This document shows positions 1-61,117 of a stretch of DNA of 64,000 bases, in pieces. The notes below the pieces were generated by a model. That model was not told the DNA's origin. It saw only the letters and a list, made by a program, of their open reading frames with translations, and did not search any database. Origin of the DNA: an uncultured Gammaproteobacteria bacterium (GTDB taxonomy: Bacteria > Patescibacteriota > Patescibacteriia > Magasanikbacterales > UBA922). The first letter of the stretch is position 1. Each line of letters opens with the position of its first letter. A program made the translations under genes and the position numbers. The stretch lies in NCBI GenBank assembly GCA_965231005.1, contig OZ246405.1, positions 295,204-359,203 of the forward strand, given 5' to 3'.

Positions 1-1
1 T

Positions 2-730
2 GCAGTACGTGATCTTGGAGACAAAGCAACTCGAGATGCACGTCGCAAAGAAGAGACAAATATTTTATTACAAAAAATTGATGATCAGTCAGCTGCGAAA
101 GAAAAAATGACTTTGCAAGGTGATGTGATAGCAGAAGATATTGTTGCAACCTCATCAGAACCAATTCCTGGGTCTGCAAACCCTGTACAAGAAATTGATG
201 TTCCCAAGATTCCTGGAATGGAGAATCCTGCTGGAAAGCACAAAGCTGTTGAGCTTACACCTGCTCAAAAGGCAAAATTTCGTAAACCTATTTCAGAAAG
301 AAGAATGCCTCGTGCACCAGGACAAGTAGACCATGACAGGGCAATGGCAGCACGAGAAGCAAGATTAAAAGCAAAAAGAGCTGGAGAAAGAGCTGGAGAA
401 AGAGGTGGAGAAAAGGCAATGGGAAGATTGGCGCCCAGCGACAAAAAGGTTGGTATAACAGCTGCAGAAGTACAGGCAGCAGCAGAGGCAGTTGAAAGAA
501 ATAAAATTATTATTGCTTCTGAAAAAGCAAAGTATTTAAAACCGGGTGGAGTATTAGATCGACTTTATAATCAACATGATAGAGCTGCAATCCAAGAAAT
601 GCACGAGAGTGTAAATGATCTTGTTGCAGAATTAGAAGCAATGGAGCACCTGGATGATAATGAGGATAGAAAAAGATTGCTTATGGAATTTAAAGCACTG
701 CAAAAACAGGGTTATGGACGAGCTGCGTAA
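2..730 (+). CDS. hypothetical protein; 5' end probably outside the window. Lys/Ala/Glu-rich, charged and helical.
   Basis: The frame is open from the window edge with no stop. An internal ATG at 107 is an alternative start. Stop at 728-730. No recognisable domain. Confidence 0.5.
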   Translation, partial: AVRDLGDKATRDARRKEETNILLQKIDDQSAAKEKMTLQGDVIAEDIVATSSEPIPGSANPVQEIDVPKIPGMENPAGKHKAVELTPAQKAKFRKPISERRMPRAPGQVDHDRAMAAREARLKAKRAGERAGERGGEKAMGRLAPSDKKVGITAAEVQAAAEAVERNKIIIASEKAKYLKPGGVLDRLYNQHDRAAIQEMHESVNDLVAELEAMEHLDDNEDRKRLLMEFKALQKQGYGRAA

Positions 731-747
731 AAATGATTGATAAAAAT

Positions 748-780
748 AGGTCCCAAAAAAGGACTTATTTTTTTATTTTT
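748..780 (+). terminator. Rho-independent terminator after the first CDS
   Basis: Hairpin AGGTCC-caaaaaa-GGACTT followed by a T-run. Confidence 0.4.
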
Positions 781-887
781 AGCATGCCACGAGGGCGCGC
801 CAATTCTAGATTTCTTGCTGCCACGTAAAGGCACTTCGTGCCCACGTGGCACTCAAAGGCGCTCGCAAGCTCGCGCCTTTTCGTGGT
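781..887 (+). ncRNA. conserved structured element A, copy 1. Nested helices with a UUCG-capped hairpin; function unknown.
   Basis: TGCCACGAG...GCGCC...[GCCACGT-AAA-stem-UUCG-stem-ACGTGGC]-CTCAAA...CTCGCGCC-TTTTCGTGG. The outer CCACGA/TCGTGG and GGCGCG/CGCGCC arms are complementary. A second copy lies at 31813-31918. Confidence 0.35.
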
Positions 888-902
888 TGACAAAACTGAT
901 AT

Positions 903-2303
903 TTGTGGCATACTTCTATATACAATATGCGCTATTTTGGATACAAAATACTCTTAGCAATCCTCCGTTTCTTCATGTATATAAAACGGGGGCTTTTTTG
1001 GCTATGGGATCGTGCGTGGCCTGTATTGCAAATTATTGGAAAATTTTATAATGATACACTTGGTTTTTGGTTCTACAAAATAACATTTTTTTTAAGACGG
1101 AGAATTGCAAGACTTATTGAGCCATGGAGAGAAGATATTGTTGACGTGTTTGGAAAACGGTCGACACTTCAGTTTGTTGTACTACTTGTCGCAGTGGTTG
1201 TTCTTATTCCACATACAAAATTATATAGTCAAGATACAGCGTCTATTCCAGGACGAAAAACATTATTGTATGAAATGATTGGTCCAGGAGAATTTGATTT
1301 TGACATTGAAGAAGTTGAAATTGATATCACAACACTGTCAAAACAGGATGAAAGAACATGGACACAAGGTTCTGTTGTTTCTCCACAAGTTTCAACAGGT
1401 GCACAAGACGATATTGTTGTTCCTCAAGAGATTGCAAGTATTAGTGCAGGTGGAACAGCAATAAGTAAACCAACAATTATTTCTGGAGATGCTGTTGCAA
1501 CCATTCCTGCAGGACAAACAGCACCATCGTCTGATAGATCAAAAGTTGTTACTCATGTTGTTTCAGCTGGAGATACAATTGGTGCGATTGCAGAATCATA
1601 TGGTATTAGTGTTGAAACAATTTTGTGGGCAAATAATTTGTCTGTTCGTTCGTACATACGTCCAGGAGACTCGCTCAAGATTCTTCCATCAACAGGTGTC
1701 TTACATAAAGTGAAGAGAGGTGAGACCTTGTCTAAGATTGCAAAAACATATGGTGCAAAAACAGAGGATATTATTGAAAAAAATAAATTGCAAAACGATG
1801 GATCAGATATTGTTATAGGAGAACAACTCATCATTCCTGGTGGAAGAAGACCACAACCAGTCAGACGAGTTGCATCTACACGTCGATATACATCATTGAG
1901 TAATGTTGCTGCTCCACCTCCATCTGTTGCAGCGCCTGCAGGGTCAGGGTATCTTTGGCCAACAAATGTAAGACGGATTACCCAATACTATGGTTGGCGC
2001 CACACTGGACTTGATGTTGCTGGGCCGCTTGGCTCTCCAATTTATGCATCTCGTGCTGGTCGTGTTATTAAGTCACAATGTGGATGGAATGGTGGATATG
2101 GTTGTCATATTGTTATTGATCATGGTGGTGTACAAACACTTTATGCGCATAATTCTCGTAACTATGTAAAAGTTGGTCAGCAGGTTTCACAAGGACAAAC
2201 AATTGCACTTATGGGATCAACTGGTCGGTCAACAGGTTCTCATATTCACTATGAAATTCGTGTGAATGGAAGACGGCAGAATCCGTTGCGATACATTAGA
2301 TAA
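903..2303 (+). CDS. LysM-domain M23 family metallopeptidase (two LysM repeats plus a C-terminal M23 peptidase domain), with an N-terminal TM segment
   Basis: LysM motifs: VVSAGDTIGAIAESYGIS and HKVKRGETLSKIAKTYGAK. M23 motifs: HTGLDVAG ... HIHYEIR. The start could be a later Met. Confidence 0.85.
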   Translation: MWHTSIYNMRYFGYKILLAILRFFMYIKRGLFWLWDRAWPVLQIIGKFYNDTLGFWFYKITFFLRRRIARLIEPWREDIVDVFGKRSTLQFVVLLVAVVVLIPHTKLYSQDTASIPGRKTLLYEMIGPGEFDFDIEEVEIDITTLSKQDERTWTQGSVVSPQVSTGAQDDIVVPQEIASISAGGTAISKPTIISGDAVATIPAGQTAPSSDRSKVVTHVVSAGDTIGAIAESYGISVETILWANNLSVRSYIRPGDSLKILPSTGVLHKVKRGETLSKIAKTYGAKTEDIIEKNKLQNDGSDIVIGEQLIIPGGRRPQPVRRVASTRRYTSLSNVAAPPPSVAAPAGSGYLWPTNVRRITQYYGWRHTGLDVAGPLGSPIYASRAGRVIKSQCGWNGGYGCHIVIDHGGVQTLYAHNSRNYVKVGQQVSQGQTIALMGSTGRSTGSHIHYEIRVNGRRQNPLRYIR

Positions 2304-2432
2304 AAATTTAAAAGGCTTTAAATGCCGTAAAGGCCATAAAGGCAAAAAGGCTCCTGGTTTGAGGAGTTTTTTTGTTTCTCAATATTTATTTTTATGCTAT
2401 CATTCTAAAGTTCCACAACAAGGGGGTGATTC

Positions 2433-3275
2433 ATGGGGACAAGAATTCAGGCAAGACTCGTGGGTGCAAAGTTTTTCAGGTCAATGTCCTGGAAGCTGTT
2501 CAATGTTGGTCGCCCAGCGACTGGCATTTACGCGTTCTTACTGACGCTCATCAGCTTCAGTTTTGACGACGGGGCATCATGGTATGTCAGACTCGTAACA
2601 GCAGCTTGCTTTGCTGGCATCACCATGAGCATCATGGCGTTCAATGACTGGACTGACAGGTACCACGATCGAAAAAAAGGAAAGACATTCGTAAGCGAGA
2701 ATGAGGCCGCTGTGATCCGGTACTGGCTCCGACTCGCTGCAGTGACAGCTGCGCTTTTGCTCATGGTTGTGAGTTCGAGCCTTGCACTCGGTGCACTCTG
2801 CTCGCTGGTTTGGGCTGTTGGTCTTGCATACTCTTTCGTGCCTCACTGGTTTGTTACACAGAACGTCATGGTCGCACTTTGTTCTGGCTCTCCAGCGCTC
2901 TGCGGAATGGCGTACCATCAGCAATACTCAAAAGCTGCTGTGGCCACATTTCTCATCCTTGTGTTTTTAGTTCTTTGGAATGAAGTGCTCAAAGACATTG
3001 AGGATGCAGGGATTGACCTTGGGTACAAAGAAACGTTCCCGCTTCGCATAGGTCATGTGCGAAGTGTTGCCATGCTGATTGGTTTCCAGTCTATGCTCGC
3101 TATGATGTTTTTATTTCATCCAAACGAGTGGGTGGTTTCTGTCGGGATCGTCTCAATGCCGCTGCTTGCGTTTCAGCTTGCATACCTACTCCTCCATCCC
3201 GAACGTGTGAAGCGACCAAAGTTCATCATTCAACACACGATCACAGCTCTTTTGACCGTCCTTCTCTTTACGTAG
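2433..3275 (+). CDS. UbiA-family prenyltransferase-like integral membrane protein (GC-rich island gene)
   Basis: Multiple TM helices. First Asp-rich motif NDWTDRYHD (NDxxDxxxD); second D-rich motif DIEDAGID. Preceded by ACAAGGGGGTG at 2418-2428. GC content is visibly higher than in neighbouring genes. Confidence 0.55.
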   Translation: MGTRIQARLVGAKFFRSMSWKLFNVGRPATGIYAFLLTLISFSFDDGASWYVRLVTAACFAGITMSIMAFNDWTDRYHDRKKGKTFVSENEAAVIRYWLRLAAVTAALLLMVVSSSLALGALCSLVWAVGLAYSFVPHWFVTQNVMVALCSGSPALCGMAYHQQYSKAAVATFLILVFLVLWNEVLKDIEDAGIDLGYKETFPLRIGHVRSVAMLIGFQSMLAMMFLFHPNEWVVSVGIVSMPLLAFQLAYLLLHPERVKRPKFIIQHTITALLTVLLFT

Positions 3276-3380
3276 GTCTAGAGGCGATCGGTGGAACAAA
3301 AAAACCGTCCGTGAGCCTTGCAATGGTTCTCATATTGGGGAATATTGCAAGGAGACTACGGGCGGTTTTTGATTTTCAAA

Positions 3381-3881
3381 TTATTCTATTGACTTTTGAA
3401 GTCGAGCACGAGTTGTTTCTGAAAGTTTTGTAAATTTTTTAAGAACGGCTTCAATATGTTCGTCATACATGTACTGTTCCATTTTTGAGACGAATTCATC
3501 CTGATCAATTTCAGGAAGAAGGTCAATGTGTTTTGTTACAAATTCGATTTGTATTTCTTCATCTTGGAAAATTTTTAAAAGCTTAGCAATATCCAGATTC
3601 CGTCTTCGAAACTCTGCAATAAAATGTTCTCCGTGGGTAATGATCCATCTTCTGTCTTCATAATCTGCAAGCATTCCAATTAATAGTTCTTCAGGAACAT
3701 GTGGTAATACAGATTCTGCTATGCCGTCATGAACTGCAGCAAGAACATCGTGCATGTTGTCATCCCAAATGAGTGTTCCTGTTTTATCATAATCAAAATC
3801 AACCTCTGGCCATTGCACACTTGCCCAATTACGTTGTTCTAGTATTTGTCTACGAGTTAGTTTTTGTTCTGGACTTCCCAT
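3381..3881 (-). CDS. hypothetical protein (acidic, cytoplasmic)
   Basis: The ORF 3381..3956 has an N-terminus that runs into a GC-rich island. The internal Met at 3881 (MGSPEQ...) is the more likely start. Confidence 0.45.
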   Translation of the reverse strand: MGSPEQKLTRRQILEQRNWASVQWPEVDFDYDKTGTLIWDDNMHDVLAAVHDGIAESVLPHVPEELLIGMLADYEDRRWIITHGEHFIAEFRRRNLDIAKLLKIFQDEEIQIEFVTKHIDLLPEIDQDEFVSKMEQYMYDEHIEAVLKKFTKLSETTRARLQKSIE

Positions 3882-4005
3882 ATAAATACATTTTTTTGTG
3901 CGACCCCAGGATCGACACACAGAACAGTGGCTTGCGCCACATTGTACCGGAGGCATGCCTGTGGTTGTTCGTGCGTCGACCCTGGGTCGGTTGTTGGCGC
4001 CTTGC

Positions 4006-4107
4006 TCAGATGGTGAGGGTGAGCTCGCAGGAACGGTCGCCGTCGTGGGGCGTGCTCATGATGCAGAGCTGGTCGTCGGTCGGGATGTGCGTGCTGTGCT
4101 TGTGCAT
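4006..4107 (-). CDS. candidate small ORF (33 aa, MHKHSTHIPTDDQLCIMSTPHDGDRSCELTLTI) inside a GC-rich island
   Basis: ATG is preceded by AAGGAGA at a 7-nt spacing. It lies in a 270-bp GC-rich insert between two AT-rich genes. Could be spurious. Confidence 0.2.
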   Translation of the reverse strand: MHKHSTHIPTDDQLCIMSTPHDGDRSCELTLTI

Positions 4108-4183
4108 GGTGCCGTCTCCTTGGTGTGTGGCGATTGTGAAGGTAGTGTATCAAAGGAATAAGAGATCTTCAAACAAAAAAGCG

Positions 4184-5706
4184 TCATTGAATTCTGGTCC
4201 GATATTGCAATGCCTCTGCAATATGTTCGGTTTTAATTTGTTTTTCACCAGCAAGATCTGCAATTGTTCTGCCTAACTTTAAAATTCTATGATAACTTCT
4301 TGCAGAAAGCTGCATTTGTGTTACTGCTTGTCGCAACAAATTTGTTGATGCAGTATCGAGCACACAATATTCTCGAATTTGCTTATTTGTCATTTCACTA
4401 TTAGTTTTGCAAGATGTTTTTTCAAATCGTTTGTATTGAATAGTTCTTGCTGCTTCAACACGGAGCCTAATGTTTTCTGAAGATTCTTCCAAGTCTTCTT
4501 TTCGCAGTTTTTCAAAAGGAATACGGGGAACTTCAACATGTAAGTCTATTCTGTCGAGGAGTGGTCCACTTATCTTTTTCTGGTACCGTGCAATTTGAAT
4601 TGGAGAACATACACATTGCTTTTCTGTGTCTGTTGCAAAACCACAGGGACAAGGATTTTGACTTGCAATTAAACTAAATTCTGCAGGAAATGTTATTGTT
4701 CCTTGTGCTCGCGAAATTGTAATCACTCCATCTTCAAGTGGTTGGCGGAGTGTTTCTAATACTTGTCTTGGAAATTCAGGAAATTCATCTAAAAATAATA
4801 CACCGCGGCGTGCAAGAGAAATTTCTCCTGGACGAGGAAATGTTCCTCCACCAACTAGCGCGACACCACTTGCACTGTGATGTGGTGCACGAAATGGTCG
4901 TTCGGTAATGAGTGGTTTATCTTGTTTTAGTAATCCTGCAACTGAATAGACTTTTGTTACTTCAATTGCTTCATCAACGGAAAGTCTTGGAAGGATTGTT
5001 GGAAACGTTCTAGCAAGCAATGTTTTTCCAGAACCAGGTGGTCCATTTAGAATAATATTATGACCTCCGCTTGCTGCGATCTCAAGCGCGCGCTTTACAA
5101 ACGATTGCCCTTTTACATATGCCATGTCTAGCTCATATTTTCCATGCGTAAACCACTCTTCAATTGGTTGTGGTTTTAATTTTGTAATTATTTTTTTCTT
5201 TTGTATGTGCTCCACAAGAGCATGAAATGTTTTACAGGATAAATTGAAATATCAGAAATAACACTCGCCTCTTTTGCATTTACTGCAGGGACGAACAGTT
5301 CTTTGTATCCTTTTTCTTTTGCAAAAATTGCAAGAGGAAGAATACCAGTTGTGTGGCGCAGTGTTCCGTCGAGTGCAAGTTCACCAACAAAAAGAGCGTC
5401 AGAAATATCAACGCCCTTTATTTTTTGACTTGCTATAAACATTCCCACTGCCATTGGCAAATCATATGCTGTTCCTGATTTTCTCACATCGGCTGGAGCA
5501 AGATTAACAATAACACGACTATTGTATGGAAATGTAATTCCAGCATTTTTCCACGTTGTACGAATACGATGCTTTGCTTCTTGTACAGCAGCATCTGGCA
5601 ATCCAATAATTTGATATCCTGGCCATGTGCCAGCAATATCTACTTCAACAGTAATTGGTTCACAATCCAAACCAAGAACTGCTACAGAGTTTATCTTTGT
5701 AAACAT
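4184..5706 (-). pseudogene. comM: comM/yifB (Mg-chelatase-like AAA+ ATPase, competence protein ComM), split by a frameshift in an A7 homopolymer
   Basis: The N-terminal Lon-like domain (ORF 5188..5706) and the AAA+/ChlI domain with GPPGSGKT (ORF 4184..5215) are in different frames. They overlap by 28 nt around a T7/A7 run at 5191-5197. Normally this is one ~500 aa protein. Confidence 0.7.
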
Positions 5707-6607: not shown

Positions 6608-6994
6608 TTACACCTCATCTTTCAATGTTTTTTTACAACTAACGCAAGATGATGATGTTGGTCTTGCTTGAAGTCTAGGAATGCTAATAGGTTCATCACA
6701 GTATTTACAAATACCATAATCGCCTTTTTCAATTCTGTCGAGTGACTTATTAATATCACGCAATCTTTTTTCAAGTGTAATCTCAAGTGACTTGCTTACT
6801 TGGTATTGTGCAACTTCTTGTACACTATCGTCCACTTCGTCACCAACATCTTCAAATTTTGCATTGTAATCACCTTCAACATGAGGATTCTTTTCTGAGA
6901 ATCCTGAAAGTTCTTTTTGAAGTCGTTCTCGTTCTTCTAAAAGCTGTGCTTTTATAATATCTAGGTCTTGGAGCTTGTGTTTTTTCGCAGCCAT
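6608..6994 (-). CDS. DksA/TraR family C4 zinc-finger protein
   Basis: N-terminal coiled coil and a C-terminal CKYCDEPISIPRLQARPTSSSCVSC (CxxC...CxxC). Confidence 0.7.
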   Translation of the reverse strand: MAAKKHKLQDLDIIKAQLLEERERLQKELSGFSEKNPHVEGDYNAKFEDVGDEVDDSVQEVAQYQVSKSLEITLEKRLRDINKSLDRIEKGDYGICKYCDEPISIPRLQARPTSSSCVSCKKTLKDEV

Positions 6995-7145
6995 ATATCG
7001 GTTGGTTATTTATTATCTCTAGGAGGCTATTATACTCAATTTGTCTTGGTGTTGCAAGTAGTAAGTATTAAGAATTAAGACTAAGGATTAAGAATTAAAA
7101 TTTACTAGATGCAGTCTTAATTATTAATGCTTAATCTTAATTTTT

Positions 7146-7175
7146 GTTATTAAAAAAAGCCCTTCTCGGCTTAAT
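7146..7175 (-). terminator. Rho-independent terminator (minus strand)
   Basis: Minus strand reads AAGCC-gagaag-GGCTT followed by TTTTTTT. Confidence 0.4.
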
Positions 7176-7204
7176 CATTCTTCTATAATATGAAATTTTT
7201 GTAA

Positions 7205-7250
7205 ATAAAAAGGCGACATAGCGCCCTAGGTATTTTTTGGCGTGTCGCCT
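7205..7250 (-). terminator. Rho-independent terminator (minus strand) at the 3' edge of the candidate ncRNA region
   Basis: Minus strand reads AGGCGACA...TGTCGCCT (8-bp stem with a nested CGCC/GGCG) followed by TTTTTATTT. Confidence 0.4.
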
Positions 7251-7640
7251 TAAAATCCCAGGGAGAAATTGCAGTGGAACAGGAGTTCCAGGTGAATATT
7301 GGCTCAATGGGATCATAATTCACCATCCGTTCCAGGGGTGTAGCTCCTCTATACTCAGAGCGCGAAGCATCGAGTATTATAGGCGAGGAAGCACCAGTTT
7401 CCAGTTCGCTTCTAAGTGTTTGACGTTTATGTTTGTTTTTACCTAATTTCGGGGAAATTAGGGTGGGAAAAATGGGAGCTGCCACAAAGGCGCTCAACCG
7501 TTCCCGAAGTCATTGGTACTTTTTATGGAAAGTACCAAAAGTGAACTGGAACAAGAGGAATAGATAGGTGAATAATCATGTTGTTCACGACAAGTCGCGG
7601 ACAACTGATTGGTTGTGAATGAGCGAATCATTTACATATA
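7251..7640 (-). ncRNA. candidate structured non-coding RNA (~390 nt), identity undetermined
   Basis: A 450-bp gap holds only implausible ORFs. It has moderate GC, several perfect hairpins (GGTGAAT/ATTCACC; GGTACTTT/AAAGTACC) and two minus-strand terminators at its 3' side. No CCGG P4 motif, so RNase P is unlikely. No tRNA-like ends on the plus strand, so tmRNA is unlikely. Confidence 0.2.
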
Positions 7641-7754
7641 TATAATACCATAATTTTTTAGTTTTGTCAATAGTAGGCATTTATTGGCTAAAATAAGCTA
7701 ATAAATTAGCTTTTTTGCAGATTTTTTTGTCTAGAATAGTCTATACAAAATTAT

Positions 7755-7910
7755 AAATGTGTGGAAAAGGTAGATAATTTTTGCAATGTTATCCACAATT
7801 TTGTTCACTTTCCCACAGACTTATCCACAATGTATAGAGTAGTGTATACAAATTACAGTTAAAAATGTGGATTGTTTGCGGGAAAAAAAACTTCTTTGAT
7901 GTGGAAATCT
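7755..7910. other. DnaA-box cluster; candidate oriC or a DnaA-regulated region
   Basis: Perfect TTATCCACA at 7789-7797 and 7821-7829. Near-consensus boxes at 7760-7768 (TTTTCCACA, minus), 7809-7817, 7866-7874 (ATCCACA core, minus) and 7900-7908 (TTTCCACA, minus). An AT-rich tract at 7640-7750 could be a DNA unwinding element. Confidence 0.45.
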
Positions 7911-8032
7911 TGCAAAATTCCTATTTTTTGGCTTAAAAAAGGTAAAAACAGCCCATTTGAGCTGCTTTATTCCTTCCCTGACCGCCGCAAGCACGAACGG
8001 TCAGGGGGTTGGCATGGTCATCTTGAAGATCC

Positions 8033-8236
8033 TCAACAGTGGTTGTCAGCAGAGTAGCTATTGCACTGGCTGCAGTAGAAGAGTGACTTGGGGCCTTGGT
8101 CGGTTTGGGTGGTCCTTACGGCCAAAACCCTGTTCTGGCAGCCAGATGTACCACATTCTCGCTTTCTGTTGAACTTTCTTGTGCGAAGCACATGCCGCAT
8201 GAGAACGATTCCTTCTTGTCCTTGGACGTCCTGCAT
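8033..8236 (-). CDS. small zinc-ribbon-like hypothetical protein (67 aa), GC-rich island gene
   Basis: GGAGGAGG Shine-Dalgarno 5 nt before the ATG. Contains CGTSGC...CSQC. Confidence 0.4.
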   Translation of the reverse strand: MQDVQGQEGIVLMRHVLRTRKFNRKRECGTSGCQNRVLAVRTTQTDQGPKSLFYCSQCNSYSADNHC

Positions 8237-8583
8237 GACCTCCTCCTATAGGTTGGAAACGCTGATTGTGCGTTTTGGTCCTATAGAAATATATAAGAGA
8301 TATTGAGGAGTGTCAACGTTTTTAAGGGTGATTTTTATATAAAAGGCTTATTTTAGCCAAATATTGCCATTTTCCTCTTGACAAAAGCCCTTTTTTGTGC
8401 TATACTGCTATGTCTACTTACAATGGAATATAGTACGAGAATCGTGGTATATTTCTGTAAGGGATGGATCTTTACAAACATCATCACACTAGTCGGATGG
8501 GTGATTGTAGTTAAGCTGAAAAAAGACTGATTACAACCACTCATTCGACAACAACGTTCGCAAACATAGCACAAGGAGCTCAC

Positions 8584-9066
8584 ATGCGATACATCTTTCT
8601 GGCCATCATCAGCGCGGCCTTCCTCATTCCCACCCACAACGCCGAGGCAGCGACCAAAGCGTCCGATGTCGCCAAGGTCATCAAGCTCATGACCAAGCCT
8701 GGTCGCACCAAGGGCGCGCTGTCCAAGAAGCGCTACAACAAGGGCAGCAGCTACCAGATCGTATTCCGGTCCAAGGGGATGCGCTACACGTTCTACTACT
8801 CGGGCAAGACCTTCGGCAACGGCATGAAGGTCGACGAGCCGTGGCTGGCAGTCTGGGTTCGCAAGGACGGTACTCGCGGTCTTCGACACCTCGATTCTTT
8901 CTCCGACCGTATGCTCGACGGCACCGTCAATGGTGGTGGCGCCAAGAACGGCAAGGAGAAGAACTTCGATGACCACCCACGTCGAGCTGAAGGCAAGCAG
9001 TACCGTGCGTACTGGCAGCGTCAGTACGATCTCGCGATCAAGCGTGCCCTGAAGCGACTTCGCTGA
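8584..9066 (+). CDS. secreted hypothetical protein (signal peptide), GC-rich island gene
   Basis: N-terminal signal peptide MRYIFLAIISAAFLIPTHNAEA. RBS ACAAGGAG. The antisense ORF 8353..9162 is judged spurious. Confidence 0.6.
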   Translation: MRYIFLAIISAAFLIPTHNAEAATKASDVAKVIKLMTKPGRTKGALSKKRYNKGSSYQIVFRSKGMRYTFYYSGKTFGNGMKVDEPWLAVWVRKDGTRGLRHLDSFSDRMLDGTVNGGGAKNGKEKNFDDHPRRAEGKQYRAYWQRQYDLAIKRALKRLR

Positions 9067-9516
9067 CGGACAACAGAAGGTGTGATGATGTGGTCGGAGT
9101 GATCTGACCAAAGATTCTTTGGGGCGTAGATGCAAGTCACGCCCCCACCTTCTTTTGTACATTTATAAAGTGTGCAGAAGAGGAAAAATATTTCAAGAAT
9201 ATTTTTTCTGTCGTTATGAGTGTGACACAATTTGATTTGAGTAATCTATTTACTTTTTAATAAGTCGAAAGAGTACTTCGTCACTTTGTTCCTCGCAATG
9301 ACAGTAGAGGCTCTTTACAAGTCGTCAATCAAGTGAAGTATTTGTTACACTATAATATAGTGTGTCGTATGCTTCACTTGAAAAAGTTGGAGTGCAATAT
9401 GCTTTGCGTGTACAGAAGATTCGTTCCATTTGGGGAACGCATCAAGATTCAAACGAATCGTTGTACGGGACGCTTAGCATCCTTCTGTCATGCGTGACAA
9501 GAGAAGGGAGAGAAAA

Positions 9517-10266
9517 ATGGCTACCACAACTTCAACCATCGAACCACCTGCCCCGCCCCGTTACCGTGAACCCACCTGGTGGGACAAATTCCGCGAGACG
9601 CCTCACTGGCTGCCGAACGGCACGTACCGTCAGGACGCGGCCATCTGGTTCGGCATGTTCGGCTCGTTCATCTTCCTCGCCGCACCGATCGTGGGTTATG
9701 TCCAGCCGACCTCGCATAACATCCTGGATGCGTACATGGCGGTCTGGACTTTCCTGACTTCGGAGTCCACCTGGATTGGTGCTGGCAAGCTCGTCGGTTT
9801 CCTCGGCGGTGGGACGATCGCAGTGTTTCTTGCGCTCGCCATTTTCTTCGGAAGCCTGTACCTCGCCTTTCGGTTCGTGCTAGAGCCGATCGGTCGGGGA
9901 TGGAACAGGCTCATGGCCTGGGATCATCGTCGGCTGTACGGCAAGTACGAAGACGAGATCGCAGAGCTCCGCAGGAAGCTGTGGGCGTCCAATGACAAGG
10001 TCGAGTCGCAGCTGACAGAGCTGGAAATGCGAGACCGGCAGGTCGAAAACCTTGAGCAAGCCCAGTCCGACCTGACCTGGTCAGTGGCATGTGTTGCTGC
10101 TGAGCTCAAGGCGGACGTGCGGAAGCGAGGAGCAGCGAACGCTCGTGTCAAGAAGGGCATTCGGAGGAAACTGATCCAGGGTCTGAAGCTTTCGATCCCA
10201 GAGCAGCGTCGACTGGACCACCTCCTGGCTCAGGCCAACCGCGTAGTCAACGGCGACATCGACTAG
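9517..10266 (+). CDS. hypothetical membrane protein with a C-terminal coiled coil, GC-rich island gene
   Basis: RBS AAGGGAGAG before the internal ATG (MATTTS). Two or three TM helices, then a coiled coil. Confidence 0.5.
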   Translation: MATTTSTIEPPAPPRYREPTWWDKFRETPHWLPNGTYRQDAAIWFGMFGSFIFLAAPIVGYVQPTSHNILDAYMAVWTFLTSESTWIGAGKLVGFLGGGTIAVFLALAIFFGSLYLAFRFVLEPIGRGWNRLMAWDHRRLYGKYEDEIAELRRKLWASNDKVESQLTELEMRDRQVENLEQAQSDLTWSVACVAAELKADVRKRGAANARVKKGIRRKLIQGLKLSIPEQRRLDHLLAQANRVVNGDID

Positions 10267-10543
10267 TACAACTCACTAACTCTTCGGAGTTTGGGCAAGA
10301 GTGATTGTACGCATGTTCAACAATTCACAAGGGGGGATCGAGACTACTTGCCCAGTCTCGATATCCCATCATGCTTCTCAATATTGAGAAACATGTAGGA
10401 CAAAAAATCTGTCTTTTACGACAGTTTTTTTGTTGCTATTTTTGATTTTGTTTAAAAAAGGCCTGTTTTTATTGATTTATTTGATCTAAATTATTAGGTA
10501 CTAGATAATAGTTATTAGTTATTATTTTTAATAGGGAGGGAAT

Positions 10544-14705: not shown

Positions 14706-15344
14706 TTAACCTCCCTTTGTTTGTTCTCTGGACGCAGCCGTCGCGACTGCTTGTGCAACTGCTGCCACGCTTCGCTGGTTTGCTGCAGTAACATTGCTTC
14801 CTTTGTAGAGGTTGGAGACATGATGGTCAAGCTCTGTTGATCCCCAGATGACAACCACGTCAGCCCAGGCAATGTCTGCCCTTGCTTGTGTTCGGTTTCT
14901 CCGCTTTGTGCCGTGCACAAGCCGCAGATTGATATCGCTTCCAACAAAACCAGCCAAGGCTTTTCGACTGCTTGGAGAGCCACCGACTACACAGACTTGG
15001 CTCCATCCAACATTGCGACAAGCTTGAATCATTTTGCGTACAGCTCGTTGGTTTGATGATCCTCCACAGATCTGGCAGAAATGCTGCTTTGCAGCGCGCG
15101 CTACAAACCGTTCTCCCTTGACCACACCTGCCTCAGTTCTGCAATCCCCTCGATCGCAGACGAGCAATACGAATTCTGCAAGAAGTTTCTTTGCCGTTTC
15201 GATTTTTTTTGTACTGATTCGTTTCTTGCTAGGTCTACTAACCCCAGCATCTTCGAGAATCAACTCAAAGATCTCCATGTCACCGGCATACCCAAGCGAC
15301 AAAAGGAGATCAGCTTTTGACACATCGGGATTTCCCTTAGTCAT
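14706..15344 (-). CDS. hypothetical protein (possibly DUF2325-like), GC-rich island gene
   Basis: AAGGAGG Shine-Dalgarno 5 nt upstream of the ATG. C-terminal VVVIWGSTELDHH. GC content is visibly higher than in the neighbours. Confidence 0.45.
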   Translation of the reverse strand: MTKGNPDVSKADLLLSLGYAGDMEIFELILEDAGVSRPSKKRISTKKIETAKKLLAEFVLLVCDRGDCRTEAGVVKGERFVARAAKQHFCQICGGSSNQRAVRKMIQACRNVGWSQVCVVGGSPSSRKALAGFVGSDINLRLVHGTKRRNRTQARADIAWADVVVIWGSTELDHHVSNLYKGSNVTAANQRSVAAVAQAVATAASREQTKGG

Positions 15345-18346: not shown

Positions 18347-18850
18347 ATGCCAGAAGCAGCTGATATCCCTTTGGAAGTCCATCCAGATGGAAGACTCGGT
18401 CCGCCCTTTCCTTTACCCGAAGAGTGCGATACTCCAGCCTGTCGAGACGCCCGCCAGGAGTTGGGGAGAATTCGTAAAAAGATCACAGATCTTTGCACTC
18501 AACAGAGCGATGCAAGGCAGAAAGAAAAAGATGCTGATGACGAGATGGTCTTTGCAGCGTCTTTGGTCCCTATCCTCATGATTGCTGCGTTAGCGCTCGC
18601 GTTCATTCCTTTTGTCGGGATTTGGCTTGCAGGGCTTGCACTCGCTGCAGCATTCGAAGCTGGTCGAAGAGCAAACAAAGCTCGACAACGGAGAGACAGG
18701 TATCGGAGACTGATTCAAGATCTGTATCGCATGATCGATGATGAGCAAGCAAAGTGGGTTCGTGCGATTATTCGATTTCACAGAGAATGTGCAGAACCCT
18801 GTCGGGTTGGCATTGATGAAGACATGCCAAGCTGTCCGTCGTACGTGTAA
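18347..18850 (+). CDS. hypothetical membrane protein, GC-rich island gene
   Basis: RBS TAGGAGCA. One central TM helix; charged, Arg-rich tails. Confidence 0.5.
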   Translation: MPEAADIPLEVHPDGRLGPPFPLPEECDTPACRDARQELGRIRKKITDLCTQQSDARQKEKDADDEMVFAASLVPILMIAALALAFIPFVGIWLAGLALAAAFEAGRRANKARQRRDRYRRLIQDLYRMIDDEQAKWVRAIIRFHRECAEPCRVGIDEDMPSCPSYV

Positions 18851-23735: not shown

Positions 23736-24143
23736 ATGAGTGTAACTCAGACAGAACAAAGGTCAATGATCAAGCATCACGTCCTTGTCGCCGTGTTGTC
23801 GGTCTGGTCGGCATGCTTTGGCGTTGCTATGGCAGTGCTGCAATTCGAGAATGAGGAGTGGGCAAGACTTACCTGGGCAGTCATAATCATAATGGTTATC
23901 CTGTCATTTACAGTTAGTCGGTTGAGTCAAGGTGCGCTTTTCAGGCTCACCGTCTATACGTTCATCTTCGAGCTGAGTCTGCTGCCAGGACTTTTTATCC
24001 CTTCGTGGTTCGATATTCTTGCAACTTCCGCCGAGGGAGGAACAGTAAGAACGGTCGGCTTTATTGGGGGGATCTTTGGCATTGCCTCGCTGATGTTCGT
24101 ACTCATTATTTTCGTGAACAATTTGAAAAAAATGATCGAGTGA
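23736..24143 (+). CDS. hypothetical integral membrane protein (135 aa), GC-rich island gene
   Basis: Preceded by ACAAGGGGGTG at 23720-23730 and a TTGACA promoter. Three or four TM helices. Confidence 0.5.
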   Translation: MSVTQTEQRSMIKHHVLVAVLSVWSACFGVAMAVLQFENEEWARLTWAVIIIMVILSFTVSRLSQGALFRLTVYTFIFELSLLPGLFIPSWFDILATSAEGGTVRTVGFIGGIFGIASLMFVLIIFVNNLKKMIE

Positions 24144-34406: not shown

Positions 34407-35714
34407 ATGAACAAGACACTGTACATTCACAACGCACGACGAGCACTTCCTTGGTTTACGTTTCCAGGGATTCATTTTTACCCAGATCGCACGCTGTCTC
34501 TCGACGAGGGGCAAACGGTTCTCAGTACTGGTCTCGAAGATGGAGTGGCTCGCGGTCAGTTTGCCTACTACCGAAGCATTGGGATCGGTCCAGATCACAT
34601 CATCGAGGTGCCTGCGCATCGTTTTGATGGTGATTTGTACCAGGCAGTTCTCAACACGCCAGGTGCTGTCCGGCATGTGCGGCGGCTCGTGTTTGACCAG
34701 GGATTCAAGATTCAGTTTTTCTGTACAAGAATGCCAGTCATTGGCGAGGCAGCAGATCTGACCACTGGTTTCGAAGAAAGCTTCATTCGTGATCTTGGTA
34801 TGGTCTGGGACGAGCATGTTCTGTCCTTGCCAAGCCAGATCGCTGACATAGGGAACAGCAAAGCTGCTGTTCGTCGCATCGCAACAAGCGACTTGAACGG
34901 AAGCAGTCAATTTCTGCCACACAAGATCTCCAAGACAGGCATCGGCCTTGTCCAGGCTGCGTGGGAGATGAAAAAAGAACATGGTCGCATCATCGTCAAG
35001 CTGCCAAACTGGGCTTCTTGCCTGGGCATGGTTGCCAATCCTTCTCCGGCTGAACTCGCTCGGTTCATGTGGCATCACCGTTCACGACTCTCTGACGTCA
35101 TTGTCGAGCCGTGGATGGGTGCAGACCATGTTGCCATGTCAGTCCTCGTCCGATACGAAAACGGATACGAGGTTGATCGATGGCATACTGAGCAGCTCTG
35201 TGAGTCCCATGAAGATGGAACGATCTCGCTGAACGGAAATGTGCTTTCGCCCAACCTCGAGAACGTGACAAAAGAAGACATCGACTGGCTGAACAAGTCG
35301 GCCGATGCAATGAACGCTCGAATTCTGGCTCGGAAGTCAAACCTGACTGGACTCATCTGCTGGGACGGGCTTCGGGATTCAGACGGTGAGCGATGGCTGC
35401 TCGAAGGAAACGCTCGCGAGACCTTTACCAGCTATGTCCGTTCAATGCAGCGGGCGCTTTCAAGACAGATTGGGTACATCCCGACCTGCCTGCTCTACAA
35501 GGTGCACCCAAAGAACATCCTGTCGTTCAGTGAGATCAAAAGACGGCTCGACTCTGATTTGTATGGTCCGATCAGGCGATGCGGTGTGATTCCAATGATG
35601 ATTCGTTGCCAGCTCGGTGCAGGCCAGCCTTACTTCTACTGCGTTGCAGTGGGCAAGTCAGTCCAGCATGCAAGTGCCATCATGGGCCGTGCAAAGATCG
35701 TGCTCGAAAAGTGA
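34407..35714 (+). CDS. hypothetical protein, possibly ATP-grasp-like; GC-rich island gene
   Basis: RBS AAGGGGG. The C-terminal ERWLLEGNAR resembles the ATP-grasp E-x-N motif. No other recognisable motif. Confidence 0.4.
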   Translation: MNKTLYIHNARRALPWFTFPGIHFYPDRTLSLDEGQTVLSTGLEDGVARGQFAYYRSIGIGPDHIIEVPAHRFDGDLYQAVLNTPGAVRHVRRLVFDQGFKIQFFCTRMPVIGEAADLTTGFEESFIRDLGMVWDEHVLSLPSQIADIGNSKAAVRRIATSDLNGSSQFLPHKISKTGIGLVQAAWEMKKEHGRIIVKLPNWASCLGMVANPSPAELARFMWHHRSRLSDVIVEPWMGADHVAMSVLVRYENGYEVDRWHTEQLCESHEDGTISLNGNVLSPNLENVTKEDIDWLNKSADAMNARILARKSNLTGLICWDGLRDSDGERWLLEGNARETFTSYVRSMQRALSRQIGYIPTCLLYKVHPKNILSFSEIKRRLDSDLYGPIRRCGVIPMMIRCQLGAGQPYFYCVAVGKSVQHASAIMGRAKIVLEK

Positions 35715-37503: not shown

Positions 37504-37600
37504 TCAGGTTGATTTTTAAAAAACCGCTTAACAGCGGTTTTTAATATTGATTTAATACCGAAAGTCTGCTAGTGTGGTTTTACAGAACCTGGAGGTCACT

Positions 37601-38653
37601 ATGCGAACGTTCTTTTCGTGCACACTACTTTTTTCGATTCTCATCTTGAGTGGCTGTAGCGGCCCAACCTACAGTTCAACACCTGCTGCCAATTCCATGA
37701 ATGCGAGCGTTGTCAAAAGGACGATGAACCCGGATTTCAAGACAGAGATTCCAGTTCAGAATCTGCTTGGCCAGCTCGCAGTTCAGAGTGGGCAGCACTG
37801 GGTGGTGTCCACTCGCTTTCATCATCTTCTCCTGAATCCACCACAATTCGGACTTGCTGACAAGTGGGGAGCTTTTCTGAAGTTTCCCATTCACTCTCTC
37901 CGAGGCAAACGAATTCGGTCTGCTCGGCTGGTAGTTGCCAAGATCGGAGGATGGAACAGTGAAAACTCCCATTCATTTGTTGTCCAACAGCTATCAAGAG
38001 CACTCGAAGTGCAGAACTTTTCGAGGAATGAGAATCGGATTTGTACTGCAAATGTGCAAGGGCTCATTGATCCCAAAAAGGTCTTCACCGAAAAATGGAC
38101 AACTCAGAAAGAAAGTGGACCAAAAGAGATGAAGTATCCTCATTTGCTGGAATGCAAGATCGGTCCTGGAAGCAAGGTCCCGCCGACGTGTCGGGATCTG
38201 ATCGGAACGTTTGGGAACCTTTACGCCCTCATGAACTGCCTGACCAGGATTGGTCATCCACCACAGCAGGTTTACTTCAATGGCGCGATCGGATCAGTAG
38301 ACGTGTCAGCCTCACTGAACGCAGCTCTTACGAGCAACAAGCGTGAAGTGGTATTTTGGTTCAAGCAATTGGGCGGGGGAGCCTTCGTGCATGATACTTA
38401 TACTGCTTTTCAAGGCTACGGTTCTCCAATCGGACCAAAGCTGATCGTTGATGCTGTTGCTGATCCTTCTGCCTCAGATTCACTTGGTGAGCCAAGAGAC
38501 CATCGTACTCGGCCAACAGCTTATGGCTGTACCAAGGATACAGACTGCAAGGGTGATCGGATTTGCGAAAACGGAAAGTGTGTCAGTCCTGAGCGCCCAA
38601 AGAAAAAGAAGAAAAGGAAAAAGCGTCGTCGCAAGCGCAAGAAGTCCAAGTAA
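37601..38653 (+). CDS. secreted lipoprotein with a C-terminal Cys-rich module and a poly-Lys/Arg tail; GC-rich island gene
   Basis: RBS GGAGGT. Lipobox ILILSGCSG. The C-terminus reads CTKDTDCKGDRICENGKCVSPERPKKKKKRKKRRRKRKKSK. Confidence 0.6.
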   Translation: MRTFFSCTLLFSILILSGCSGPTYSSTPAANSMNASVVKRTMNPDFKTEIPVQNLLGQLAVQSGQHWVVSTRFHHLLLNPPQFGLADKWGAFLKFPIHSLRGKRIRSARLVVAKIGGWNSENSHSFVVQQLSRALEVQNFSRNENRICTANVQGLIDPKKVFTEKWTTQKESGPKEMKYPHLLECKIGPGSKVPPTCRDLIGTFGNLYALMNCLTRIGHPPQQVYFNGAIGSVDVSASLNAALTSNKREVVFWFKQLGGGAFVHDTYTAFQGYGSPIGPKLIVDAVADPSASDSLGEPRDHRTRPTAYGCTKDTDCKGDRICENGKCVSPERPKKKKKRKKRRRKRKKSK

Positions 38654-45480: not shown

Positions 45481-47883
45481 ATGAAGATGACAAGAATCAT
45501 CATGACGATCGCGGCGTGTCTTGCGATCATAAGCGGATGTGCTGCTGATTCAGTAGCCGATGGTCCATCGACGAGCACTGCACAGGATGCAGTCGCTTAC
45601 GACGACGGATCCATCCGTCAGTCCGACATCGAAAGTCTCGACACAGGAAAGGGCGACATTCAAAACGACATCGGTGAGCTGGACTCGATCGAAAGCAACC
45701 AGACCGAGGACGCTGTAAAGTTGCCTCCGGAATGTATCGTTGACAAGGATTGCGACGATGGTGTTTCGTGCACTGTCGGTAAATGCAACTCGCTTGGTGC
45801 TTGTGTCTATAACCCAGATGCACAGCTGTGCGACAAGGGCAATTTCTGCGAGTTGTATTACTGTGACGTCATCAAAGGTTGCGTGTCCACGAGTCTACCA
45901 GATGGTAAGGATTGCGGTTCATACGGCTGTCTCAAGAAGACCTGCGTCAGCAAGGAGTGCATCAGCAAAATCATTCTGAGTACATGTAAGGACGGTGATG
46001 TCTGTAGCCAGGCACACTGTAACGCACTTGGCGTCTGTGAATACTCGATCAAGTCGGGTTGCTGCAAGGAAGATAGTCAATGTGAAGACGGTCTGTACTG
46101 CACGCTTAACAAGTGCAACAAGTCTGACAACACGTGCTATGAGCTGCTCGCTAACTGCGACGATGGCAATGTTTGTACGGCTGACTACTGTGATGAAAAC
46201 GCGCCCAAGGACAAGAAGTGCAAGCATGTTCCGATCAAGGATTGCTGTAACAGTGCCAAGGATTGTGTGGATGATAGTAAGTGTAATGTCGACAAGTGCG
46301 TCAAGTCGTGGCACAAGTGCGTCTACGCAACAAAGGACTGCAATGACAACAAGCCGTGCACTAAAGATTTCTGTGACGTTGACACAGGTAAGTGTGTGAA
46401 CACAACCATCAAAGGATGTTGCACCAAGCTTACGGATTGTGGCGTGACTCAGTCGCACGACAAGACGGGCTGTCTGTTCACGCTTTGTAACCCGACTGTC
46501 GGTCTCGCTGGCACTTGCACCACCGTCAATGCAAAGGATGGATCTGAGTGTCTCGACGGTGACCTGTGTAACGGAGCAGATCACTGCGAAAGCGGGAAAT
46601 GCGTTCCAAACAAGAAGACTGTTGTCGCGTGCGATGATGGGAATCTCTGTACCACGGATTACTGTACTCAGGGGGCAAATGGCGGGTGCAAGTTTGTTCC
46701 GGTGAAGAGCAAGACTCCGTGTAGCGATGGTAATGCCTGTACTTCTAGCAAGTGTTTCGATGGCTTTTGTAAGGTGTGGAACCAGAATCTTTGTGATGAT
46801 GGTGTCCAATGCACGCTGAACTCCTGCGCTTCGATCGCTCTTCCTGGCCCAGGCGGAAAGTCGTACAAGCAGTGTTTCCTCCCGACTTTTGTTCACTCAC
46901 TTTGTAGCGACAACAAGCCCTGCACTGTAGATACCTGCACGAAGAAGGGATGTGTGAACACGCCAAAGAAGTGCGACGACGGGAATTCCTGCACCACTGA
47001 TTCTTGCGACAAGAAGACCGGAACGTGTAAGTACACTCCGATTAAGGATTGCTGCGCGAAAGACAGCGATTGTGTTGGTGACAAGTGTACTCAAGTGTTG
47101 TGCAATAAGAAGACAGGGAAGTGTGGGACCACTCTCCTCCATTACAACGATTGTATGAGCAAGGCACCGAACTGTACCACGCGTATTGCATGCCACAGAA
47201 AGAGCGGGGCATGTAAATACGACGAGCTGGTGTCCGGAAAGGAATGGGTGTCCATTGGTGTTGGTGTCTGTGTGGATACAAGCCCTTGCTCTGCGCAGAA
47301 ATGCGATCCGAAGACGGGTAAGTGCGTGTCCAAACAAGTCTGCGATGACGGGAACAAGTGCACCGACGACAGTTGTCAGGGTGGAAAAAAGTGCAAGCAT
47401 GTTCCGGTCAAGAATTGCTGCAACACCGCTAAGGACTGCGACGACGGCAACCCATGCCGGATTTACAAGTGCCAGAAAGAGTATAATCATTGCACCTACG
47501 TCCCGGCCAAAAACTGTGACGATGGAAACAAGTGTTCGGTCGACAGTTGCGACGAAAAGACTGGCAAGTGCAAGCATCTGCCGTTTATCGGGAAGGGTTG
47601 TTGTGAAAAGCCTACGGACTGTAACGACAACAACAAGTGTACCATCGAAAAGTGCGAGAACTTCAAGTGTTCTAACAAGCAAAAATGTGACGATCACAAT
47701 CCATGCACAGTTGACACTTGCGATAAGTGGGATGGAAGTTGTAGCTTCAAGAAAACTGACCCAACATGCTGTAAAACAGGTGATGATTGCAAAACTCCAC
47801 CTAACTTTTGCCCTAGTTGGATCGCTGTCTGCGAAAAGTCCAAGTGTCTATATTTGAATGGTAAAGGAGATTTCTGCAAATAG
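45481..47883 (+). CDS. large secreted lipoprotein built from about 25 Cys-rich repeats (CDDGNxCTxDxC ... CC), similar to the Myxococcus cysteine-rich repeat; GC-rich island gene
   Basis: RBS CCAGGGGGT. Lipobox LAIISGCA. Tandem CxDGNxC(T/S)xDxC modules. The long antisense ORFs are artefacts. A terminator follows at 47907-47950. Confidence 0.65.
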   Translation: MKMTRIIMTIAACLAIISGCAADSVADGPSTSTAQDAVAYDDGSIRQSDIESLDTGKGDIQNDIGELDSIESNQTEDAVKLPPECIVDKDCDDGVSCTVGKCNSLGACVYNPDAQLCDKGNFCELYYCDVIKGCVSTSLPDGKDCGSYGCLKKTCVSKECISKIILSTCKDGDVCSQAHCNALGVCEYSIKSGCCKEDSQCEDGLYCTLNKCNKSDNTCYELLANCDDGNVCTADYCDENAPKDKKCKHVPIKDCCNSAKDCVDDSKCNVDKCVKSWHKCVYATKDCNDNKPCTKDFCDVDTGKCVNTTIKGCCTKLTDCGVTQSHDKTGCLFTLCNPTVGLAGTCTTVNAKDGSECLDGDLCNGADHCESGKCVPNKKTVVACDDGNLCTTDYCTQGANGGCKFVPVKSKTPCSDGNACTSSKCFDGFCKVWNQNLCDDGVQCTLNSCASIALPGPGGKSYKQCFLPTFVHSLCSDNKPCTVDTCTKKGCVNTPKKCDDGNSCTTDSCDKKTGTCKYTPIKDCCAKDSDCVGDKCTQVLCNKKTGKCGTTLLHYNDCMSKAPNCTTRIACHRKSGACKYDELVSGKEWVSIGVGVCVDTSPCSAQKCDPKTGKCVSKQVCDDGNKCTDDSCQGGKKCKHVPVKNCCNTAKDCDDGNPCRIYKCQKEYNHCTYVPAKNCDDGNKCSVDSCDEKTGKCKHLPFIGKGCCEKPTDCNDNNKCTIEKCENFKCSNKQKCDDHNPCTVDTCDKWDGSCSFKKTDPTCCKTGDDCKTPPNFCPSWIAVCEKSKCLYLNGKGDFCK

Positions 47884-49114: not shown

Positions 49115-50164
49115 CTACAAGAGTCTATCTTCTCCAACGCCTAAATGTGTATGAGCATGAGCTGTTACTTTTCTTCCACGAGGTGTTCGCTCAATCATAC
49201 CTATTTGCAACAAATAGGGTTCATAAATTGTTTCAACTGTATCTACATCTTCGGCAACCGATGCTGCAAGTGTGCTAAGCCCGACAGGTCCACCATTAAA
49301 TTTTGTAATAATTGTTGAAAGAATTTTTCTATCAATTGCATCTAGTCCTTTTTCATCAATATTAAGGAGAGATAACGCTTGGTCAGTTATTGTTTCATCT
49401 ATTATACCATTCGCCTTTACTTGCGCATAATCGCGAACGCGCTTCAGTAGTCGGTTTGCAACTCGAGGAGTTCGTCTTGCCCGTTGTGCGATCATCTCTG
49501 CTCCTGCAGGATTTATTCCAACATCAAGGAGTGAGGCGTTTCTCTTAATAATATCTGTAATATGGTCAGTCTCGTAAAAATCCAAATGATAGACATGACC
49601 AAATCTGTCTCTGAGTGGACTTGAGAGAAGATTCAGTTTTGTTGTTGCACCAATGAGTGTAAATTTTTCAAGTGGCATTCTTAGTGTCCGTGCTGCTGGA
49701 CCCTTTCCTACAACAATATCAAGGGCATAATCTTCCATGGCTGCATACATTACTTCTTCGATACTTCTGTTCATTCTATGAATTTCATCAATAAATAACA
49801 CATCGCCTTCTGACAAATTTGAAAGTATTGCAGCAAGATCACCAACACGTTCAAGTGCTGGACCTGCAGTAACCTTGATATTTACATTCATTTCTTTCGC
49901 AATGATATTTGCTAGGGTTGTCTTGCCCAGTCCTGGATTGCCATACAATAAAATATGCTCGATCGGCTCACTTCGATGTTTTGCTGCTTGTATTGAAATG
50001 TCGAGCGGCTCTTTTATATGTGCTTGTCCGACGAAGTCTTCTAATCGTTTGGGCCTAAGTGTCATTTCAATATAATCTTCTTCTTCACTGTGATTACCCA
50101 TACTGCTCACAATGCGAGATTCTTCGTTTTCTACTGCTAAATTGTCTGTATCAGGTGTTGTCAT
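49115..50164 (-). CDS. ruvB: Holliday junction branch migration DNA helicase RuvB
   Basis: Walker [17 protein letters not shown], sensor and winged-helix regions. Confidence 0.9.
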
Positions 50165-50308
50165 AGTAGGGGTATTGTACGTTGTTATGAAAAGAAAATC
50201 AATTTATTGGTGAGAATGTTTTTTTCTTATTTTTACTGTGTGGATAACTTTTTTTTCTAAAGAATTTTGTTGCTAGATTAAGTCAAAACTTGGAATTTGA
50301 AAATATAT

Positions 50309-53360: not shown

Positions 53361-53381
53361 TTAGTTTGTAACATATTTTTT

Positions 53382-60972: not shown

Positions 60973-61117
60973 TAGGTCATTGTTCTTTATATTTTGTCGG
61001 AGTATTTCCACAAAGATGGTGGGGAATTACTGGGTTTGCGTCCTGTGGTTTTCCCCCATCTTTACACACAACAGAGCAGAATGGGTGGGGATGTACTGCT
61101 TTGTGAGGTACTTTATT

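Follow-up and report, generated by a model that had tools for sequence, protein, structure and literature searches.

A conserved DnaA-box cluster outside the replication origin of a Magasanikbacteria-like genome, upstream of the predicted promoter of a candidate structured RNA

We analysed a stretch of 64,000 nucleotides, referred to here as the window, taken from contig OZ246405.1 of assembly GCA_965231005.1 (positions 295,204 to 359,203 of the forward strand), a genome deposited under the name of an uncultured Gammaproteobacteria bacterium and placed by GTDB in the order Magasanikbacterales of the Patescibacteriota. Around position 7.7 kb of the window lies a cluster of binding sites for the replication initiator DnaA (DnaA boxes), which a preliminary description of this DNA had put forward as the putative chromosomal origin (oriC). 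We found that the cluster is not oriC; the spacer between dnaA and dnaN, ~15 kb away, holds the canonical elements of an origin. As judged from sequence, the cluster is probably a DnaA-binding regulatory region that lies near but outside oriC, directly upstream of a strong predicted promoter for a conserved structured RNA of ~430 nt. The boxes, palindromes, promoter and RNA form a module whose anatomy is conserved across Magasanikbacteria-like genomes, and homologues of the region are labelled Candidatus Magasanikbacteria or Patescibacteria.

The DnaA-box cluster and its conserved module

The cluster and the elements between it and the promoter are the following (strand relative to the window):

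7821-7829, plus: DnaA box 1, perfect TTATCCACA (TGTGGATAA on the RNA-sense strand), abutting the first palindrome
7809-7817, plus: DnaA box 2, degenerate TTTCCCACA with two mismatches, 3 nt from box 1
7789-7797, plus: DnaA box 3, perfect TTATCCACA, oriented as boxes 1 and 2
7769-7777, minus: inverted box TTATCTACC, two mismatches
7760-7768, minus: inverted box TTTTCCACA, one mismatch, abutting the box at 7769-7777
7866-7874 and 7900-7908, minus: putative outlying weak boxes CAATCCACA and ATTTCCACA, two mismatches each
7830-7851: Pal1, a 22-bp near-palindrome of family consensus TTGTATACACTAGTGTATACAA, putative operator for a dimeric factor
7727-7748: Pal2, a second copy of this palindrome, between the boxes and the promoter
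7686-7712: putative AT-rich palindromic element, GGCTAA..TTAGC, ahead of the -35 hexamer, recognised by reading the sequences
7642-7670, minus: predicted sigma-70-type promoter, TTGACA, 17-nt spacer and TG-extended TATTAT, matching 11 of 12 consensus positions

Six of these boxes, two of them perfect, had been described before as lying in both orientations within ~150 bp, and all six were confirmed at their positions; the box at 7769-7777 is a seventh, absent from the earlier list. Over the whole window, boxes with at most one mismatch occur at the level of chance (18, against 20.4 ± 4.4 expected), and the cluster is thus distinguished by density, seven boxes with at most two mismatches falling inside 150 bp. 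We scored boxes over 200 bp, giving a perfect box 4, one mismatch 2 and two mismatches 1. The cluster scored 14, the maximum of the window, with the next independent locus at 7. When the window was resampled 200 times under a first-order Markov model, the score averaged 5.8 and reached at most 9; resampling with the local AT-rich composition gave a maximum of 11. The clustering of boxes is far above chance. The window holds one further perfect DnaA box, at 50239-50247 on the minus strand, in the divergent spacer between ruvB (49115-50164, minus) and the ribonucleotide reductase genes (50493-54416, plus). The nrd promoter of E. coli is under DnaA regulation, and this box may likewise mark a DnaA-regulated nrd promoter.

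The AT-rich stretch beside the boxes is real, with a GC content of 26% over 7600-7799. The tract at 7640-7750 had been taken as a possible DNA unwinding element; it is fully accounted for by the near-consensus minus-strand promoter, which forms its core, the palindromic element upstream of the promoter and Pal2. The promoter at 7670-7642 was invariant in an alignment of the window with four GTDB relatives and present in 34 distinct loci that we inspected. The best explanation of the arrangement is that this is the promoter that the boxes would serve, driving a non-coding RNA leftwards. An AT-rich element resembling GGCTA..(T)TAAGC(C) was also seen between DnaA boxes and promoter at dnaA itself, both in the contig that extends the window (contig L168, about 1925-1950) and upstream of dnaA in the relative L006, which suggests that the RNA gene and the dnaA gene may share a promoter design.

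The 22-bp palindrome has no copy in the window other than Pal1 and Pal2. In two relatives it also flanks minus-strand genes that, judged by eye, are tRNA-like (L070 3210-3617; L165 8266-8287), accompanied in L070 by weak DnaA boxes, an observation that hints at an operator common to stable-RNA promoters.

Conservation was followed in the alignment with four relatives, which covers the region from the boxes to the dksA-like gene and in which the architecture is nearly invariant, in the 34 inspected loci and in 48 metagenome loci picked by similarity of their DksA protein alone. Read on the RNA-sense (minus) strand, the module runs from Pal1 through TGTGGATAA, 3 nt, the degenerate box, about 12 nt, a second TGTGGATAA, the inverted boxes, Pal2, the GGCTAA..TTAGC element, the promoter, the RNA and its terminator to a dksA-like operon with a promoter of its own, and this order recurs in relatives. 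Across the 34 loci, box 1 is the best-conserved box of the module, being nearly invariant and 0-3 nt from Pal1, and box 2 keeps its position with a degenerate sequence. The inverted box is often present, in several relatives at the very position of 7760-7777, and in many relatives a further perfect box stands directly ahead of the -35 hexamer, which is a typical regulatory position. Among the 48 loci picked by DksA, at -1000 to -250, 42 held two or more boxes with no more than one mismatch, 41 a perfect box and 37 the palindrome. Box density there was 3.9 per kb, eleven-fold that of the downstream control (0.35 per kb), and for perfect boxes the excess was about hundred-fold (2.2 vs 0.023 per kb). 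Two metagenome-assembled genomes (MAGs) labelled Uhrbacteria (L049 and L029) keep the boxes, the promoter, a transcript of ~400 nt, the terminator and dksA and have no palindromes, so the link between boxes and promoter is more widely conserved than the palindromes are.

The predicted transcript downstream of the promoter

Two features define the transcript unit:

7203-7635, minus: candidate structured non-coding RNA of ~430 nt, with ends predicted from promoter and terminator
7210-7227, minus: intrinsic terminator of the RNA, formed by the inner stem of a longer GGCGAC..GTCGCC hairpin and a following T-run

The predicted transcript is structured and non-coding. Profile searches found a single copy in the window and homologues at 76 loci, in every case preceding dksA in the same orientation, with sizes of 360-510 nt in relatives. 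From an alignment of 27 sequences, RNAalifold derived 38 consensus pairs, including two long-range helices, and compensatory changes were present in 32 of the 38; they include the terminator helices 5 and 6. Paired cells amounted to 91.5% as against 80.7% in shuffled alignments, and the 32 pairs with double changes compare with 16.7 ± 2.0 in shuffles and with at most 21 in controls with slid partners; none of 500 shuffles reached the observed pairing values. The copy in the window folds with a minimum free energy of -141.9 kcal/mol (z = -9.85) and carries a conserved A-rich linker, CAAAAACAAACAUAAA. Its open reading frames (ORFs) are short, none is conserved, and three homologues hold no ATG-initiated ORF at all.

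The RNA is a candidate new family without an Rfam counterpart: searches with Rfam 15 gave no match in the window at gathering thresholds, nothing relevant in 6900-8600 at E <= 5 and nothing in ten homologous loci at E <= 1. Assignment to RNase P RNA, tmRNA, signal recognition particle (SRP) RNA or 6S RNA was considered and finds no support in Rfam, in ARAGORN or, for 6S RNA, in size. In the literature we found nothing specific on origins of the Candidate Phyla Radiation (CPR) or on structured RNAs of Patescibacteria. We also considered whether the conserved CCCC..UUACUACU strand of the RNA mimics a C-run followed by DnaA-trios, and rejected this: the spacing to the C-run is variable and many copies read ACUGCU.

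Position of the replication origin

Neither dnaA nor dnaN lies in the window, and their absence beside the cluster, pointed out in the preliminary description, is correct; dnaA nonetheless lies only 5.7 kb past the left edge. The ENA metagenome contig k127_55553 (L168) is identical to the window over positions 1-4047 and continues leftwards from there (window position = L168 position minus 7568). The extension holds dnaN (minus), dnaA (minus, -7117 to -5735), then rpmH, rnpA and yidD diverging on the plus strand, and tig, after which come the first genes of the window. The dnaA-dnaN pair is thus 13-15 kb left of the cluster, with the dnaA start 13.5 kb away and eighteen genes between. Bacterial origins usually, though not necessarily, adjoin these two genes. 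The exact DksA and DnaA proteins are recorded together on one NCBI contig of 1.23 Mb.

The basal unwinding system of bacterial origins consists of one or more DnaA boxes, a spacer and DnaA-trios (PMC6669920; PMC8287927). In the dnaA-dnaN spacer, at window coordinate -7341, tandem boxes are followed by a C-run, by DnaA-trios and by an AT tract (TATATA), in the sequence TTATCCCCG-CTATTCACA-CCCC-CTA-CTA-TTA-CTA-TCG-TTTATATTTATATATAAG. The same module is present in the dnaA-dnaN spacers of seven further loci (L006, L029, L049, L021, L070, L165 and L171), and a strict search of 1.71 Mb of loci returned seven matches, two of which are the same locus, all seven in dnaA-dnaN spacers. At the 7.7-kb cluster, no box is followed within 16 bp by an array of at least three trios. 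Pal1, tried as such an array, has no NTN periodicity. The cluster shares with the basal unwinding system tandem boxes in the same direction, 3 nt apart, and AT-rich DNA nearby; the position where trios would be expected is taken by Pal1. A weak module-like match near 58788, consisting of a "box" with three mismatches and ATATTACTACTAGTTATT in a 100-bp spacer between minus-strand genes, with no good boxes near, is probably due to chance.

Gene-strand effects dominate the raw cumulative GC skew in 1-kb bins and leave it ambiguous, and strand bias was measured as GC skew at third codon positions (GC3 skew) of the coding strand:

window genes left of 7.7 kb: plus-strand genes +0.36, minus-strand genes +0.08
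right of 8 kb: plus-strand genes +0.21, minus-strand genes 0.00

In the extension the values were +0.25 to +0.47 for plus-strand genes, 0.00 to +0.12 for native minus-strand genes and -0.23 for dnaA. The polarity is the same on both sides of 7.7 kb, and the plus strand is therefore leading on both. In a likelihood scan of the merged 71.5 kb, the best position for an origin was at or left of -7.3 kb (logL -2532.4, against -2554.1 at 7.7 kb, a difference of 21.7 log units). In the relative L171 (GCA_016193335.1) the change of polarity coincides exactly with the dnaA-dnaN spacer (leading +0.15, lagging -0.24), and no second flip follows through comM.

With no trio array and no skew switch at 7.7 kb, and with an unwinding module in the dnaA-dnaN spacer, the proposal of oriC at the cluster fails. 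What we find is the outcome that the preliminary description had itself named as speaking against its proposal, a GC-skew minimum elsewhere together with a better cluster beside dnaA. The clusters on the dnaA side are "better" solely through the unwinding module of one of them; they are not richer in consensus boxes, scoring 11 and 10 as against 14.

Neighbourhood and possible roles of the cluster

We propose that DnaA, probably as a short ATP-dependent oligomer, would bind the boxes that point in the same direction, and that, together with a dimeric palindrome-binding factor on Pal1 and Pal2, it would set the output of the RNA promoter, by which the level of the RNA would be tied to the state of the initiator. 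Because it lies 9-15 kb from oriC, we propose that the cluster would probably also buffer free DnaA in the manner of the oriC-proximal clusters of B. subtilis. DnaA is known as a transcription factor that autoregulates dnaA and controls a regulon (PMC4447404). Like DnaA-regulated promoters, the one at 7670-7642 has several boxes upstream of a sigma-70-type promoter, and at the dnaA promoter of the same genome the boxes, a GCTA..TAAGCC element and the promoter follow in the order found at the cluster. Unlike known DnaA-regulated promoters, the main boxes here lie well upstream of the predicted start, and a second type of operator is present.

Several points weigh against this proposal. Boxes 1-3 precede the predicted start by about 120-195 bp, a long distance for simple repression or activation, so that looping between the palindromes or spreading of a filament must be assumed, and the copy in the window has no box beside the -35 hexamer. 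The palindromes could be the main control element, with the boxes serving mainly as a DnaA sink. Promoter, transcription start and RNA ends alike are predicted. As for the placement outside the origin, the skew flip at dnaA-dnaN is seen in the relative L171 alone, and left of the cluster the skew test draws on ~15 kb of genes, its likelihoods treating sites as independent.

Of the other readings, the one that survives best is that the cluster acts mainly as a DnaA sink, or as an element of the DnaA cycle on the pattern of datA, DARS or the B. subtilis clusters, modulating how much initiator is available near oriC and playing no particular part at the RNA promoter; we regard it as unlikely. The module has several high-affinity boxes in one place, and the module lies 9-15 kb from dnaA in the window genome and in relatives, even on the opposite side of the origin: in L171 the anchor genes of the module, comM and lspA, are found 7-10 kb past dnaN, and the module itself would sit just beyond the stretch that was examined. 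There is precedent as well. B. subtilis has six DnaA-box clusters outside oriC, some of which regulate neighbouring genes and which together restrain initiation (PMC3245932), and the E. coli loci datA, DARS1 and DARS2 combine specific box arrangements with IHF or Fis sites and act on the DnaA cycle, stimulating ATP hydrolysis or nucleotide exchange on DnaA (reviewed in PMC5742627). The cluster resembles those of B. subtilis in having intergenic consensus boxes in promoter regions near but outside the origin, and differs in its predicted non-coding RNA target, in the two 22-bp palindromes that bracket the boxes and in the conservation of the whole module, at the level of sequence, across a CPR lineage. 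Like datA and DARS, the cluster has putative sites for an accessory protein next to its boxes; the likeness goes no further than a box cluster outside the origin, and those loci are not tied to an RNA promoter. What a sink needs is exceeded by the fixed register of box and palindrome, by their conserved position relative to the promoter and by the box beside the -35 hexamer in many relatives. The two roles, sink and promoter control, are compatible.

That the cluster is itself a chromosomal origin, a second origin or the distant half of a split one, with DnaA on the boxes opening 7640-7750, is very improbable. Its box score is the highest in the merged 71.5 kb, the AT-rich tract adjoins the boxes and genes diverge locally from the region. 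Boxes 1-3 nevertheless point away from that tract, and the tract is a conserved promoter; to this are added the lack of a trio array, the unchanged GC3 polarity across the site, the complete unwinding modules in the dnaA-dnaN spacers of this genome and of six relatives, and the skew of L171, which flips at dnaA-dnaN and keeps its polarity from there through comM. It counts for this reading that some origins do combine a strong promoter inside them with palindromic sites for a regulator; in Cori of Caulobacter crescentus, DnaA boxes are interleaved with palindromic CtrA sites, and a strong promoter is present. At Cori, which is the origin, skew changes direction; here skew and unwinding module place the origin elsewhere.

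We give still less credence to the reading that the box-like 9-mers belong to the site of the palindrome factor or of another protein. Box 1 does abut Pal1 in a fixed register, but the exact E. coli-type TTATCCACA is kept in 41 of the 48 independent loci, the dnaA promoter and the origin of this genome use the same consensus, and in the Uhrbacteria-labelled MAGs the boxes persist where palindromes are absent. The palindrome presumably differs from parS, dif, NrdR boxes and LexA boxes, sharing with them neither half-site nor spacing.

The genes around the module are arranged as follows. On the minus strand, to the left, lie the dksA-like gene, lspA, a gene related to 23S intervening-sequence (23S-IVS)/bAvd proteins and a split comM/yifB; to the right of the cluster come GC-rich orphan ORFs and then a gene with a lamin-tail domain (LTD).

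6608-6994, minus: DksA/TraR-family zinc-finger gene, which anchors the synteny of the module in every relative
7029-7057, minus: promoter of the dksA-like/lspA/bAvd-like/comM operon (TTGCAA, 17-nt spacer, TATAAT), separate from the RNA promoter
7945-8316, minus: unrelated convergent unit with a 67-aa zinc-ribbon ORF (8236-8033, no Pfam match), promoter 8316-8288 and terminator 7968-7945
GC-rich ORFs: 2433-3275, 8033-8236, 8584-9066, 9490-10266, 14706-15344, 18347-18850, 23736-24143, 34407-35714, 37574-38653, 45481-47883 and 60980-61822

The preliminary description had offered, as an alternative to oriC, a DnaA-regulated promoter for the ORF at 8033-8236, and this idea fits in kind but not in its target. 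The ORF, preceded by a GGAGG ribosome-binding site, lies on the minus strand and is read towards the cluster, which its terminator also faces; with a promoter and terminator of its own, it is not the regulated gene.

The GC-rich ORFs, about eleven at 47-59% GC within a genome of ~36% GC, mostly have no Pfam match, the exceptions being 2433-3275 (UbiA) and 45481-47883 (Dictyostelium-type cysteine repeats). In the island at 7950-10300, the sole one profiled finely, the coding parts are GC-rich and the spacers AT-rich, with native-looking TTGACA-17-TATAnT promoters; the relative L047 has no such block, and the LTD gene is the direct neighbour there. The least probable reading of all takes the cluster for an origin or attachment remnant left by a mobile element connected with this island, after the model of iteron origins: the two ~22-bp repeats flank the boxes and AT tract, and the 2.3-kb orphan-gene block, absent in L047, abuts the cluster, but the module is kept in dozens of genomes without the island, only the ORFs of the island are GC-rich, its spacers and promoters looking native, and no rep, integrase or relaxase gene is among the neighbours. 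Iteron-type plasmid origins have at least three iterons and an adjacent rep gene; here there are two palindrome copies and no rep-like neighbour.

Further left, comM/yifB (4184-5706, minus) is present as two overlapping ORFs of 172 and 343 aa, while relatives have a single ORF of ~506 aa. The split also occurs in an independent ENA contig and is either a frameshift or pseudogene or a read-level error common to both. Two ENA contigs from one sample terminate at window positions 4047 and 4058, 10 bp apart; the window bridges this assembly break point, which falls in a short GC-rich stretch (3860-4180) where spurious-looking ORFs overlap.

For this CPR genome, the richest DnaA-box cluster near the origin is not the origin, and box counting alone would misplace oriC by 15 kb; it is placed correctly by the trio-bearing dnaA-dnaN spacer and by skew at codon positions. 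The locus also exposes two unexplained conserved elements of Magasanikbacteria-like genomes, the structured RNA and the putative 22-bp palindromic operator. A more far-reaching possibility, which we hold to be doubtful, is a link, specific to the CPR, between the initiation of replication and a large structured RNA: DnaA, with a palindrome factor that would mark tRNA genes as well, would drive or gate a stable and abundant RNA of ~430 nt beside the origin, and the RNA itself would act in control of the cell cycle or replication, or else be a new housekeeping RNA of Patescibacteria. If DnaA does control this RNA, the locus would present a structured RNA under DnaA regulation in a lineage that is uncultivated and has reduced genomes, a case of which we know no other example, and would offer a concrete handle on the control of the cell cycle there.

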